Part shown: piece by piece, positions 42,766 to 44,771 of the stretch
How the letters are laid out: each line of letters starts with the position of its first letter
How positions within the stretch are numbered: the first letter of the stretch is position 1
From: a phage
Sequence record: NC_135731.1
DNA length: 64,000 nt
Strand: one strand, 5' to 3'
Made by a program: the position numbers and the translations under genes
Notes under the pieces: generated by a model
The model's database searches: none
What the model was told of the DNA's origin: nothing
Seen by the model: the letters and a program-made list of their open reading frames with translations, nothing else

Positions 42766-43320
42766 TTACTCCCTGCTGTCAATATCAAAACTCATTGCAA
42801 TACGGTATGCCTCTTCTAATGGTAAGAGTCTCCCCCACACATCCCAACCGACATCAAGCTGCCTGCCAAACAACTGTTGTGTGGTTCCGTGAGCATGACC
42901 GAACAGTTGGACTGATCCGTGAGGCTTTCTGTTCCACTTTGCAAACTGGTAATGGCTCATACAGATCAAATTCTTGTTGTGGCGAAGCTCGTAATAATCT
43001 ACAACCTCATGACCGAACTCTTTCATAATTCTGACAGTCGTTCTTGTGTCATGGTTGCCACGAACAAGAATAATATGTCCGTTCAACATATTTAGAATAT
43101 CTGGAAGTAAGTTGTTGATATTCTTATCATTAGTGCACGCAATATCTCCCAGGTGGAACACAGTGTCTGCAGGTGACACAACAGAGTTCCACTCGGCGAT
43201 GATTCCAGCATTCATACTATCAAGATTGTGATCATACTGAGATCTGTGTTTTTGACATGACTCAAACTCCATGACCCGCTGGTGGAGAAAGTGTGTGTCG
43301 CTTGTTACAAAGTATTTCAT
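42766..43320 (-). CDS. calcineurin-like metallophosphoesterase (candidate RNA-repair 2',3'-phosphatase)
   Basis: motifs SDTHF, GDIACT, VRGNHD, GHAHG; start set at internal ATG 43318..43320 just after the kinase stop (ORF track lists a longer 42766..43422 frame). Confidence 0.65.
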   Translation of the reverse strand: MKYFVTSDTHFLHQRVMEFESCQKHRSQYDHNLDSMNAGIIAEWNSVVSPADTVFHLGDIACTNDKNINNLLPDILNMLNGHIILVRGNHDTRTTVRIMKEFGHEVVDYYELRHNKNLICMSHYQFAKWNRKPHGSVQLFGHAHGTTQQLFGRQLDVGWDVWGRLLPLEEAYRIAMSFDIDSRE

Positions 43321-43327
43321 ACATTCC

Positions 43328-43735
43328 TCATTTAAGTTTAATGCAGTTTTTAAGTTGGCGTTCCATACGATCCACAACCTCGTCTGAAGCATGAATGCTT
43401 TTATTACCGTGGCGGTTTTCAACCACGATCACGGTATAACTATACCCATAACTGATTGCCATGTCAACATATTCCTGCACATGTTTTTCTTTTGTAAAAG
43501 TATTACTTACCACGATACGGTCGTATCCCATACGCATCATATCTTCTACGTTATCTTTGCACCATTTTGCTGCGAGTGTTAATTTACTTGCATCCCAGTT
43601 GTAATTGCCGTCATCGTCATACCAGAACATGTCGTTCTCAAAATGTGGATACAGGCCTTCTAAAGATAGCGCATTTGCCAGTGTTGATTTGCCAGACCCC
43701 GGCAGACCACGCACGATATATAGCATTTTAGACAT
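43328..43735 (-). CDS. P-loop polynucleotide-kinase-like protein
   Basis: Walker A GLPGSGKST near N-terminus; start at ATG 43733..43735 preceded by GGAGG RBS (track lists a longer 43328..43792 frame). Confidence 0.55.
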   Translation of the reverse strand: MSKMLYIVRGLPGSGKSTLANALSLEGLYPHFENDMFWYDDDGNYNWDASKLTLAAKWCKDNVEDMMRMGYDRIVVSNTFTKEKHVQEYVDMAISYGYSYTVIVVENRHGNKSIHASDEVVDRMERQLKNCIKLK

Positions 43736-43835
43736 AGCAATCCTCCGTTTTAATTTTAATGATAGTATACCTAACTGTTTTGTTAATTTCAAGTGTTGAC
43801 ACTAGGTTATTTGTGTGGCAGGATAGACTGACAAA

Positions 43836-44771
43836 ATGACAAATGAGGAACGTATGATGAAGTATTTTAATGCAGATGACCTAGTAGACAAAGGTCTTGT
43901 AACCAGTCGGTATTATCCAGATCTTGGATTAAAGATCTATAAATATGCCAGAAAAGTATTCTACAACAATCTGTGGCATTTGTCTCCGCGTTTACTGGAG
44001 TGCCGAGGTATTGTTGTTGGCAATGAGGGGAATGTTGTGGCATGGCCTTTCACAAAAGTATTCAACTTAGGAGAAAACTCCACCAACCTACCGGACAGTA
44101 AACTTGTTACTGCGGTAGAGAAAAAGAACGGATTCCTCGGTGTGGTATCATCTCATAAAGGTGAACTGTTGTTCTCAACAACCGGGTCTCTTGATTCCCC
44201 ATATTGTAACCTCGCAAAAGAAACCATCATGGAGCAATGTGGTAATTTAGATCTTATCAAGAAGGTTATGGGCAATGAAAACATGACATTCATGTTTGAA
44301 ATTTGCCACCCTTCAGATCCGCATATTGTTCAGGAAGATCATGGCGCATATTTGATAGGTTGCAGATATAATGATTCTGGAATAATGCTACCAGAAGCAG
44401 CTTTAGACGGGATTGCCAAATACCTTGGTGCAAAACGTCCTCACACTGTGCGTGAAATTCCGTTCAGCTATGCAAAAGAATTAGCTGCAGAAACAAGAGG
44501 TGAAGGGTATATGATTCGTAAGCCTTACTACCCTTATGATCTGCAGCTGAAGATCAAGTCTCCATACTATCTGGCACGGAAGGCTGTAATGAGGGGTAAA
44601 GCTTGGAAGATTTGGGATGATGATATCTTTAAACGTGTTGACGAAGAGTTTTACGGTATGGTAAAATTTATTCGTAGCAACTATACAGAAGATGTGTGGA
44701 ATTGCTTATTAGAGCAGGAGCGTCGTGAGATACTGGACTACTATTTCCACAACGAGGACTATATGCAATGA
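43836..44771 (+). CDS. ATP-dependent RNA ligase-like nucleotidyltransferase
   Basis: motif I KKNG (VEKKNGFLGVV; KxNG as in tRNA ligases), motif IV EGYMIRK, motif V LKIKSPYY; 311 aa. Confidence 0.6.
   Translation: MTNEERMMKYFNADDLVDKGLVTSRYYPDLGLKIYKYARKVFYNNLWHLSPRLLECRGIVVGNEGNVVAWPFTKVFNLGENSTNLPDSKLVTAVEKKNGFLGVVSSHKGELLFSTTGSLDSPYCNLAKETIMEQCGNLDLIKKVMGNENMTFMFEICHPSDPHIVQEDHGAYLIGCRYNDSGIMLPEAALDGIAKYLGAKRPHTVREIPFSYAKELAAETRGEGYMIRKPYYPYDLQLKIKSPYYLARKAVMRGKAWKIWDDDIFKRVDEEFYGMVKFIRSNYTEDVWNCLLEQERREILDYYFHNEDYMQ

Follow-up and report, generated by a model that had tools for sequence, protein, structure and literature searches.

The genome of Escherichia phage phiWec196, a Vequintavirus of the rV5-like group, carries a cluster of predicted RNA-processing genes that raises the question of whether the phage can heal and seal RNA cut by its host. 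The window analyzed here (the whole stretch of DNA, 64,000 nucleotides) is 100% identical to phiWec196, 96–97% identical to rV5 and the BASEL phages and 96.5% identical to Escherichia phage V5. An initial annotation, made from the sequence of the window, had proposed that a P-loop kinase, a calcineurin-like metallophosphoesterase (MPE) and an RNA ligase supply the three activities for repairing tRNAs cleaved by host anticodon nucleases. The three open reading frames lie where that annotation placed them and in the same orientation, with corrected starts, and the trio is real, but the module was incomplete: genes for a cREC protein, a sirtuin and a MazG-like protein had been missed. We consider the cassette to be, with reasonable probability, a phage RNA end-healing and sealing system that acts on host-cut RNA, probably tRNA.

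To our knowledge, T4 Pnkp and Rnl1 form the only experimentally established repair answer of a phage. Systems of E. coli that act against phages by cutting tRNA include PrrC, RloC, PARIS, retron-Septu and OLD (bioRxiv 10.64898/2026.07.10.737580). In viral metagenomes, the cassette has a far wider distribution than its T4 counterpart, and model carriers exist among the BASEL Vequintavirinae, such as Bas58. At stake are the MPE-based healing route, the nuclease products that can be repaired and the part that a sirtuin may play in RNA repair. The cassette itself is already known: it has been published computationally for rV5-like coliphages and is annotated in related GenBank records (the rV5 and BASEL relatives carry the labels ‘polynucleotide kinase’, ‘putative phosphoresterase’ and ‘RNA ligase’), and as a finding of a genome scan it adds nothing to what has been published or annotated. 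Separate polypeptides and a calcineurin-type phosphatase, which the initial annotation singled out, are indeed present but are not distinctive, having been published for this phage group (PMC9503650).

Layout of the Locus

The kinase and MPE genes form a tight minus-strand operon, in which 7 nt separate the kinase stop codon from the MPE start, and the ligase gene is divergent on the plus strand (Table 1). The MPE starts at the ATG at 43320, which has a GAGGA ribosome-binding site (the open reading frame list had an upstream TTG at 43422); GGAGGA precedes the kinase start; and GAGGA lies upstream of the ligase start at 43854, the previously given 43836 being an upstream in-frame ATG. The start of cREC overlaps the ligase stop codon (ATGA), an arrangement of translational coupling, and a GAGGA ribosome-binding site lies 5 nt upstream of the sirtuin gene. 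The ligase, cREC, sirtuin and MazG-like genes read as one predicted transcription unit, followed by a terminator-like hairpin with a stem of 7 bp and 6 GC pairs (consensus scan only). The divergent intergenic region holds a putative minus-strand promoter-like site, TTGAAA-17-TATACT, at 43792–43764 and a perfect TTGACA at 43796–43801 on the plus strand with a weak -10 element; both may serve as promoters.

Table 1. Features of the cassette, with coordinates in the window.
Feature	Coordinates	Strand	Length	Predicted role or remark	Assignment
MPE, aq_1665-type	42766..43320	-	184 aa	Candidate RNA 3'-end healing enzyme	Pfam, PHROG
Stand-alone P-loop kinase	43328..43735	-	135 aa	Candidate 5'-OH polynucleotide (RNA) kinase	AAA_33
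Divergent intergenic control region	43736..43853		118 bp	Separates the two divergent operons	
Rnl1-family ATP-dependent RNA ligase	43854..44771	+	305 aa	Predicted RNA ligase; short helical C-terminal domain	RNA_lig_T4_1
cREC protein	44768..45118	+	116 aa	‘Cyclic-phosphate processing receiver’ domain	PF20274
Sir2-family (sirtuin) protein	45127..45888	+	253 aa		Pfam SIR2, phrog_2162
MazG-like nucleotide pyrophosphohydrolase homologue	45903..46616	+	237 aa	Final gene of the plus-strand unit	phrog_671
GC-rich terminator-like hairpin	46623..46640	scored on both		Closes the plus-strand unit	

A tRNA cluster lies at 39017–39829. The distance of about 3 kb from the cassette that had been offered as support for a role in tRNA repair is correct here (2.9 kb), but its weight as support is lost among relatives, since eight of nine related loci have no tRNA within 5–6 kb. 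One tRNA of 97–99 nt (39264–39360) was considered as an intron-bearing splicing substrate and rejected: the Rfam alignment shows a full-length tRNA-Lys(UUU) whose variable arm is long and whose anticodon loop is intact. No gene for NAMPT, PRPP synthetase (PRS) or a T4-type Pnkp (the last sought by tblastn) was found in the window.

The Three Core Proteins

The motifs quoted by the initial annotation for the kinase, MPE and ligase are all present and invariant across homologues, and the corresponding Pfam families all score above their curated thresholds. The kinase has the P-loop RGLPGSGKST and matches AAA_33 (42.2 bits, cut-off 27; E 1.3e-10) and a PHROG family (E 1.7e-53). Its homologues share an invariant P-loop (G10-K16-S17), D35, N78-T79, E106-N-R-H109 and H115. 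Single-sequence queries of the kinase and the ligase against the PDB gave nothing useful, so that profiles were needed; the kinase profile matches the Mucorales tRNA-splicing RNA kinases 9d8a and 9drz best, followed by Pnkp1, T4 Pnk, PSTK and CthPnk. With hhalign, the kinase aligns to the T4-like Pnkp kinase domain (95.9% probability, E 6e-9), and D35 falls on the RDD of that family. CthPnk and T4 Pnk lead the Foldseek matches of the kinase model (E 3e-5, TM 0.68). By these modest scores, the predicted kinase groups with 5'-OH polynucleotide and tRNA kinases, the nearest solved relatives, as had been proposed. In the description of MciKIN, Asp36, the counterpart of D35, is given as essential (PMC11571804). 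The lid Arg108 (ENRHG) is present; T4 Pnk Arg38, a substrate contact, has no equivalent in the kinase, which has Phe/Trp there, and T4 Pnk Asp85 at the Mg site corresponds to Asn78. The protein ends at 135 aa with no second domain and has no fused HAD (DxDxT) 3'-phosphatase as in T4 Pnkp. It may resemble the kinase domain of N4BP2. Generic nucleotide kinases follow closely behind in the structural and profile scores, which are modest throughout.

The ligase carries the motifs KKNG, EGYMIRK and KIK and matches RNA_lig_T4_1 over profile positions 1–227 of 227 (54.5 bits, cut-off 28.3), with a PHROG match at E 1.3e-65. Invariant in 46 homologues are R51, K68, F70, K90-x-N-G (motif I), E149 (III), E217-G218 (IV) and K233-x-K235 (V), which align to T4 Rnl1 R54, K75/F77, K99, E159, E227/G228 and K240/K242. 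Among PDB sequences, the ligase profile matches only T4 Rnl1 (E 1.9e-13). The AF2 model (pLDDT 93.5) finds Trl1-LIG, T4 Rnl1 and Rnl3 as its best Foldseek matches (4e-12 to 1e-9), whereas DNA ligases appear at 2e-5 or weaker. The possibility that the protein is a DNA ligase or a capping enzyme, which would have counted against the original proposal, is disfavored by its Rnl1 motifs, profile and fold matches, which support a predicted RNA ligase closer to RNA ligases than to either of those classes. The ligase reaches 39.4 bits against the cut-off of 242 for the T4 RnlA equivalog (NCBIfam TIGR02308), and its hhalign alignment ends at T4 residue 249, leaving the T4 tRNA-specificity C-terminal domain unaligned. 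By sequence, it is a member of the wider Rnl1 family and not a T4 RnlA orthologue. In the profile of phrog_8238 (‘RNA ligase’), the kinase matches the N-terminal part and the ligase the C-terminal part, which suggests that fused kinase–ligase proteins exist.

The MPE carries TSDTHF, GNHD and GHAHG, scores above the cut-offs for Metallophos (28.3 bits, cut-off 21.5) and Metallophos_2 (28.9, cut-off 27) and belongs to phrog_547 ‘phosphoesterase’ (E 6e-52). The motifs of the calcineurin-like superfamily (D-x-H, G58-D59, G88-N89-H90, H123 and G141-H142-x-H144) and the metal-binding residues D8, H10, D59, N89, H90, H123, H142 and H144 are invariant in 34 homologues, and the predicted dinuclear metal site is complete. 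The nearest solved protein is Aquifex aeolicus aq_1665 (1XM7; profile E 4e-28), a structural-genomics protein that offers no guide to the MPE substrate. The CthPnkp phosphatase and lambda phosphatase both have solved structures; neither is matched by the MPE profile in a search of PDB sequences with E-values as high as 1, in which the other matches include GpdQ, YfcE and MJ0936. The calcineurin-type domain of the proposed 2',3' phosphatase is upheld, but the protein falls in an aq_1665-like clade and has no specific sequence similarity to the RNA 2',3'-phosphatase clade of CthPnkp and lambda phosphatase. A role as 2',3'-cyclic phosphodiesterase or 3'-phosphatase on RNA is predicted entirely from gene context, which makes the MPE a candidate for it. 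Its relatives at ~31–35% identity occur in phage contexts with no recognizable kinase or ligase domain nearby. Identification of the MPE as the ligase-associated nuclease PdeM was considered and rejected (NCBIfam 20.9 bits, cut-off 150).

Conservation of Gene Linkage

The kinase, MPE and ligase genes show a strong, virus-specific co-localization, and the functional linkage proposed for them is upheld across phages. The trio occurs together in six cultured phage genera at 30–48% identity and the majority of 160 viral metagenome loci likewise show co-location, although some of these loci are near-duplicates and, with carriers that are often distantly related, inheritance may account for part of the synteny. 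All six orders of the three genes occur while linkage is kept. Around the ligase, MPE is found within 6 kb in 73/80 viral loci and the kinase in 58/80. Around the kinase, 57/80 viral loci have the MPE, in 25 of them as the immediate neighbor and invariably in the same orientation, and 44/80 have an RNA ligase of the Rnl1-like or Rnl2-like type. As a control, cellular-genome loci with kinase homologues contain MPE in 4/80 and a ligase in 3/80; the bacterial kinase homologues are solitary genes in a housekeeping context.

The three genes could instead be neighbors through inherited early-gene synteny and have no joint function. Nucleotides would then be the substrate of the kinase, cyclic-nucleotide signals or phosphoproteins that of the MPE, and the ligase homologue would help to attach tail fibers, as T4 gp63 does. 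Many carriers are distantly related large myoviruses, labels such as ‘RNA ligase and tail attachment protein’ have been carried over from T4, and the distant MPE relatives and bacterial kinase relatives lack partner genes. Against this stand the linkage maintained through every gene order, the pairing of kinase and MPE with two distinct RNA ligase families, and the replacement of the kinase in some loci by a stand-alone T4-Pnk-like kinase domain without HAD phosphatase beside the same MPE and ligase, so that a different kinase lineage can fill the same slot. The close spacing of the kinase and MPE genes here, their overlap in many loci and the invariance of catalytic residues in all three proteins point in the same direction, and we regard separate functions as very improbable.

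A joint function could also concern DNA, the kinase and MPE cleaning 5'-OH/3'-phosphate DNA ends for an ATP-dependent DNA ligase while the Rnl1-like protein has a separate role. A gene for such a DNA ligase lies 2.5 kb downstream (47243–48526) and accompanies the cassette in syntenic position in ESCO13, PN09, Zigelbrucke and 2L372X; an ATP-dependent DNA ligase is present in 30/80 ligase-anchored loci; and DNA ends are also among the substrates of T4 Pnk and MciKIN (PMC11571804). The very weak match of the MPE to PdeM would fit as well but is far below the cut-off. In kinase-anchored viral loci, an RNA ligase is the far more frequent partner (44/80 versus 4/80 for a relative of this DNA ligase, a count from a single-sequence query that may miss divergent DNA ligases). 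DNA-end repair is very improbable in our judgment.

cREC, Sirtuin and MazG-Like Proteins

Since the module is larger than the trio, the chemistry at the 3' end may not be T4-like. The cREC protein (domain defined in PMC7824862) matches PF20274 (52.3 bits, cut-off 27; E 9e-14), and W.DD, FDNDLG, VH[TS]SNP and K.MLA are invariant in 12 homologues. The sirtuin matches Pfam SIR2 (E 1.4e-27) and phrog_2162 (E 3e-108) and has the NAD-binding motif GAGLS..GIPTFR and the HG catalytic histidine. It contains three cysteines in all and none between HVHG and FFGE; the Cys4 zinc module seen in classical CobB-type protein deacylases is thus missing, and the protein scores below the cut-off for all NCBIfam CobB models. 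The MazG-like protein belongs to phrog_671 ‘nucleotide pyrophosphohydrolase’ (E 1e-21) and gave no match in a Pfam search. These three genes are lineage-specific additions in the rV5 lineage. The sirtuin is present in 11/80 and cREC in 10/80 ligase-anchored loci, so that the core trio stands without them in most such loci; the MazG-like gene accompanies the cassette in 12/80. No cREC was found among the small unassigned cassette genes of Acinetobacter, Pseudomonas and Vibrio phages.

Iyer et al. (2022; PMC9503650) have hypothesized an NAD+-dependent repair analogous to Trl1/Tpt1. In this scheme, cREC or the MPE would open the cyclic phosphate to a 2'-phosphate, the ligase would join the ends, the sirtuin would use NAD+ to strip the 2'-phosphate in the manner of KptA/Tpt1, and cREC and the MazG-like enzyme would degrade the ADP-ribose cyclic phosphate by-product. 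The scheme extends RNA end healing and sealing without contradicting it, and the difference lies in the 3'-end chemistry. Beyond having been proposed in print, it draws on the tight packing of the ligase–cREC–sirtuin–MazG-like unit, with its stop/start overlap and terminal hairpin; on enterobacterial phage contigs of ~146 kb in which MPE, ligase, cREC, kinase and sirtuin follow in this order on one strand; on fungal Trl1 ligase domains, which match the ligase model as well as T4 Rnl1 does; and on the sirtuin having no zinc module typical of protein deacylases. In addition, a NAMPT gene occurs no more than 6 kb from the ligase in 27/44 fully flanked loci and a PRPP synthetase gene in 26/44, in several different arrangements near the cassette. 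However, the sirtuin and cREC occur in few ligase-anchored loci, and, as PMC9503650 states, 2'-phosphotransferase activity is not known for any sirtuin and the function of cREC is a prediction. NAMPT and PRS are also absent from the window, and the linkage to NAD+ salvage genes could merely reflect a counter-defense gene island. We judge the NAD+-dependent scheme unlikely. About as unlikely is the specific claim that the cassette is mechanistically tied to NAD+ through a zinc-site-less sirtuin that removes a junction or terminal 2'-phosphate like KptA/Tpt1; if it held, NAD+ demand would explain the repeated linkage of the cassette to NAD+ salvage genes, a link that neither PMC9503650 nor the NARP preprint draws.

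A Proposed Model for RNA End Healing and Sealing

[quoted passage not shown] Breaks made by PrrC, RloC, HEPN and other metal-independent tRNases call for end healing, whereas the 5'-P/3'-OH ends left by the TOPRIM nucleases PARIS and OLD should require a ligase alone. The P-loop kinase would put a phosphate on the 5'-OH, with Asp35 as the likely general base, and the two-metal MPE, possibly with the help of cREC, would open and remove the cyclic or 3' phosphate. The Rnl1-family ligase would then self-adenylylate on Lys90, activate the 5'-phosphate and seal the ends, and in the rV5 lineage cREC, the sirtuin and the MazG-like protein may act on a leftover 2'-phosphate by means of NAD+, or on what that reaction yields as by-products. 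The domain identities, intact catalytic residues and operon structure are established at the level of sequence. By analogy with T4 Pnkp/Rnl1 acting against PrrC, the cassette may counter tRNA-cutting abortive-infection systems. A literature search returned no paper tying Vequintavirus to RNA repair.

Comparison with Known Systems

T4 Pnkp and Rnl1, which counter PrrC, follow the same logic of a 5' kinase, a 3' phosphatase and an Rnl1-family ligase. All nucleotidyltransferase motifs of T4 Rnl1 are shared with the cassette ligase, although T4 Rnl1 has 374 aa and the cassette ligase 305 aa. The kinase domain of T4 Pnkp aligns with the cassette kinase, which stands alone, and the T4 phosphatase is a HAD (DxDxT) domain, whereas the cassette candidate is a metallophosphoesterase. 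Relative to T4, the cassette has the cREC, sirtuin and MazG-like genes added.

Clostridium thermocellum Pnkp/Hen1 combines the three domain types of the cassette, its calcineurin-type phosphatase being described as a 2',3'-cyclic phosphodiesterase and monoesterase (PMC2190708), and the CthPnk kinase domain is the best fold match of the cassette kinase model. In CthPnkp, however, the three domains are fused and Hen1 is needed, whereas the cassette encodes three proteins with no Hen1 seen, and the likeness of the phosphatases does not extend to specific sequence similarity.

In fungi, the Trl1/Tpt1 system has a Mucorales split version with a stand-alone ligase and a stand-alone RNA 5'-OH kinase (PMC11571804), in which healing and sealing reside on separate polypeptides as in the cassette. 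The cassette ligase model counts Trl1 ligase domains among its best structural matches, and no PDB sequences match the kinase profile better than those of the Mucorales stand-alone kinases, but these similarities are remote (~20% identity; kinase E-values 1e-5 to 1e-7). The cassette has MPE, cREC and a sirtuin where fungi employ a 2H cyclic phosphodiesterase and Tpt1.

The closest counterpart is the V5-type sirtuin-centered RNA-repair neighborhood predicted by Iyer, Burroughs, Anantharaman and Aravind (2022, Viruses 14:1977; PMC9503650, section 3.7.3), with Escherichia phage V5 as the named prototype and MazG as a listed component. All six members of that set (T4-like ligase, cREC, nucleotide kinase, sirtuin, MazG and, variably, a calcineurin-like phosphoesterase) lie within 42766–46616, and the two are the same thing, without difference in gene content. 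The published description centers on the sirtuin, whereas by our counts the ligase family is accompanied most constantly by the MPE (73/80).

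Organization of the Probable RNA Repair Cassette

The kinase, the metallophosphoesterase (MPE), and the ligase most likely form a classical heal-and-seal cassette for RNA cut by host ribonucleases. Domain identities, conserved residues, operon structure, and virus-specific linkage are observed; what the enzymes act on, in which sequence, and against which host attack is inferred. The kinase would phosphorylate the 5'-OH end, the MPE, with or without cREC, would clear the 2',3'-cyclic or 3' phosphate, and the ligase would seal the ends via a Lys90-AMP intermediate.

The region at 42000-46000 is 100% identical in nucleotide comparison to Escherichia phage phiWec196 (LC739542.1, Vequintavirus) and 96–97% identical to rV5, Murica, and several BASEL phages. 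Its genes are mostly annotated as "hypothetical" in the phiWec196 record; the BASEL phage HeinrichReichert labels the trio "polynucleotide kinase," "putative phosphoresterase," and "RNA ligase." Eighteen unannotated GenBank records named "Campylobacter phage" (MG0656xx; nucleotide search matches H8-H10, H22, and H26) are 96–98% identical to E. coli rV5-like phages, and their Campylobacter host assignment looks doubtful.

The initial annotation proposed RNA repair by a kinase and a phosphatase encoded divergently from a ligase. All three reading frames are present in that orientation, every motif quoted for them occurs in the protein sequences, and the Pfam matches (AAA_33, Metallophos and Metallophos_2, and RNA_lig_T4_1) all exceed curated thresholds, with PHROG matches at E-values of about 1e-52 or better. 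That proposal was right in outline and incomplete, as it overlooked the cREC, sirtuin, and MazG-like genes. A gap of 7 nt separates the end of the kinase gene from the MPE start, and the two genes thus form an operon. On the other side of a 118-bp intergenic stretch that contains promoter-like sites, the stop of the ligase and the start of cREC overlap (ATGA), and the closely spaced sirtuin and MazG-like genes are followed by a terminator-like hairpin. The module therefore consists of two divergent units: the minus strand encodes the kinase followed by the MPE, and the plus strand encodes the ligase, cREC, the sirtuin, and the MazG-like protein.

Features of the cassette region and of compared loci (positions in the window unless a locus is named)
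Feature	Location	Strand	Description
tRNA genes	39017-39829	-	seven phage tRNAs, including Thr(UGU), Lys(UUU), and Tyr(GUA)
YrlA (Y RNA-like) match	39040-39152	-	overlaps tRNA-Pro and tRNA-Met
tRNA-Lys(UUU)	39264-39360	-	97 nt, variable arm ~26 nt
MPE	42766-43320	-	start read from DNA; GAGGA/GGAGGA-type ribosome-binding site upstream
Kinase	43328-43735	-	start read from DNA; GAGGA/GGAGGA-type ribosome-binding site upstream
Ligase	43854-44771	+	start read from DNA; GAGGA/GGAGGA-type ribosome-binding site upstream
cREC	directly after ligase, overlapping	+	116 aa; Pfam cREC_REC, E 9e-14
Sirtuin	45127-45888, 8 bases past cREC stop	+	Sir2 family, 253 aa
MazG-like	after sirtuin	+	237 aa; homologue of MazG-like nucleotide pyrophosphohydrolases (PHROG)
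Terminator-like hairpin	46623-46640		GC-rich, 3' of MazG-like gene
ATP-dependent DNA ligase	47243-48526	+	2.5 kb from cassette
Substitute kinase, ~155 aa	L167 1787-2299; L174 4120-4584; L178 1728-2192		aligns with T4 Pnkp residues 2-143, 28% identity
Second metallophosphoesterase (Vibrio phage Chester)	L006 4184-4933		249 aa; Pfam Metallophos, E 3e-15
Cellular kinase homologues (examples)	L201 5971-6405; L217 5992-6363

Homologues of cREC, a domain named in Pfam as "cyclic-phosphate processing receiver domain," retain acidic residues of the receiver type (DD, FDNDLG, [TS]SNP, and K). The sirtuin has the NAD-binding motif and the catalytic His; it contains three cysteines in total, lacks a Cys4 zinc-binding module, and scores under the cut-off of every CobB-type NCBIfam model. 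Many phage records name this sirtuin after the classical CobB-type protein deacylases, yet it differs from them. For the 3' end, the main alternative would give the sirtuin a KptA/Tpt1-like role in an NAD+-dependent route, as proposed by Iyer et al. (2022; PMC9503650). Among 80 IMG/VR loci chosen by the ligase alone, cREC is found in 10 and the sirtuin in 11, all on enterobacterial-type contigs of ~90–150 kb and commonly in the order MPE, ligase, cREC, kinase, sirtuin. The core is widespread; both genes are lineage-specific additions.

Identity of the Three Core Enzymes

A profile of the ligase family (46 sequences) has T4 Rnl1 as its sole match among PDB sequences (E 1.9e-13), and the ligase aligns with T4-like RnlA over residues 31-249 at 97.8% probability. 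Invariant positions include R51, K68/F70, K90 (motif I), E149, E217/G218, and K233/K235. Every catalytic position of T4 Rnl1, as defined by mutational work of the Shuman lab, is invariant in the family. The best structural matches of the confident AlphaFold2 model (pLDDT 93.5) are fungal Trl1 ligase domains, T4 Rnl1, and archaeal Rnl3 (~1e-12 to 1e-9), whereas DNA ligases match at 2e-5 or weaker only. Profile match, catalytic residues, and fold together predict an RNA ligase that belongs to the Rnl1/Trl1 lineage. Orthology to T4 RnlA was rejected (39 bits vs. an equivalog cut-off of 242). T4 RnlA has 374 aa compared with 305 aa here, and the C-terminal helical domain of the ligase does not align with it.

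Repair of DNA ends with the syntenic ATP-dependent DNA ligase is a less likely reading. The DNA ligase gene accompanies the cassette in 30 of the 80 ligase-anchored loci and in the related phages ESCO13, PN09, Zigelbrucke, and 2L372X; in this protein, Pfam matches extend over the OB domain and only the C-terminal portion of the catalytic domain.

The kinase belongs to a very large family (>7,900 matches) of stand-alone proteins of ~130 aa, in which the P-loop, D35, N78-T79, E106-N-R-H109, and H115 are invariant. The best PDB matches of its profile are the Mucorales stand-alone RNA 5'-OH kinases 9d8a and 9drz, which function in tRNA splicing (PMC11571804), followed by Pnkp1, T4 Pnk, PSTK, and CthPnk. 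Alignment to the T4-like Pnkp kinase domain reached 95.9% probability (hhalign), and CthPnk and T4 Pnk are the top structural matches of the model (pLDDT 84). With match scores that are modest, generic nucleotide kinases close behind, and equivalents of T4 Arg38 and Asp85 not conserved in the family, a polynucleotide substrate is well supported but not proven for the putative enzyme.

In the MPE, all dinuclear-metal ligands are invariant across homologues, and the nearest solved protein is Aquifex aq_1665 (1XM7; E 4e-28). CthPnkp and lambda phosphatase, known RNA-end phosphatases of the superfamily, gave no match at E up to 1, and relatives at 31–35% identity lie in phage neighborhoods without a recognizable kinase or ligase domain. 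Gene context alone points to the MPE as a candidate 3'-end healing enzyme. Chester carries its second, different metallophosphoesterase directly upstream of the ligase and the aq_1665-type MPE downstream of it.

Virus-Specific Linkage of the Core

The trio is co-located in six cultured phage genera (Phapecoctavirus, Otagovirus, Pakpunavirus, Thalassavirus, Plateaulakevirus, and Saclayvirus) at 30–48% protein identity and in differing orders. When 80 IMG/VR loci were chosen by the kinase alone and partners were sought within 6 kb, the MPE was present in 57, every time on the same strand and in 25 directly adjacent or overlapping, and an RNA ligase in 44 (27 Rnl1-like, 18 Rnl2-like); the ligase-anchored loci contained the MPE in 73/80 and the kinase in 58/80, and 88 loci with the complete trio represent all six co-directional gene orders, counts that include some near-duplicates and many carrier phages of common deep ancestry. 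In 80 control loci with kinase homologues from cellular genomes, the MPE occurred in four and a ligase in three, with housekeeping genes as neighbors. The linkage is virus-specific, and a trio without any joint function is less likely than repair by the three together. The chromosomal homologues of the 130-aa kinase (L181-L260; ~40% identity) come from Bacteroidota, Vibrio, Leptospira, and others and are not accompanied by the MPE or ligase; one of them, in a Bacteroidia genome, lies directly 3' of PNPase.

In three viral loci (L167, L174, and L178), the kinase slot beside the same MPE and an Rnl1-like ligase holds a stand-alone T4-Pnkp-like kinase domain, and the usual kinase appears to have been replaced by a different lineage. 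The substitute comprises only the Pnkp kinase domain and lacks the HAD phosphatase, which fits the MPE supplying the phosphatase function. The kinase matches the N-terminal end of the phrog_8238 ("RNA ligase") profile and the ligase its C-terminal end, which suggests that fused kinase–ligase forms exist.

Neighboring tRNA Genes

The tRNA cluster reported near the module is present. Its proximity is not conserved among relatives: eight of nine related loci have no tRNA within 5–6 kb of the cassette. The tRNA-Lys(UUU) gene is missing from the phiWec196 annotation; its variable arm is unusual for tRNA-Lys, ARAGORN gave a 4-base anticodon, and its Rfam tRNA score is 37.5 bits. The YrlA match (25 bits vs. 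a gathering threshold of 69; E 0.029) is most likely due to chance. PrrC and PARIS target tRNA-Lys(UUU), and retron-Septu targets tRNA-Tyr. An OLD-resistant tRNA-Thr(UGU) inhibits OLD defense, and PARIS and retron-Septu are counted as tRNA-cleaving systems (OLD preprint, bioRxiv 10.64898/2026.07.10.737580). In this phage, replacing tRNAs and repairing them may complement each other as strategies.

Comparison with Known Systems

Of the 80 ligase-anchored loci, 37 have NAMPT and 35 have PRPP synthetase within 6 kb of the ligase (27 and 26, respectively, of the 44 that are fully flanked). This NAD+ salvage link occurs among the IMG/VR loci L102-L160 and also in L004, L005, and L006. The position of the two genes varies: they lie divergently upstream, 3' of the kinase, or immediately beside the ligase. 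Neither was found in the window. The NARP preprint makes no mention of RNA ligase, and the linkage of the core to NAD+ salvage in relatives is absent from the NAD+ papers examined (PMC9503650 and the NARP preprint); it constitutes a lead.

A literature search returned no paper naming both Vequintavirus and RNA repair. cREC was defined, and its operonic links to RNA ligases noted, by Iyer et al. (2021; PMC7824862), who also reported that the phosphatase of phage RNA repair is in some cases a calcineurin-like domain. The neighborhood described by Iyer et al. (2022; PMC9503650) is the cassette locus analyzed here, so the finding was already known as a computational prediction; the NAD+ salvage linkage is the one point absent from the NAD+ papers examined.
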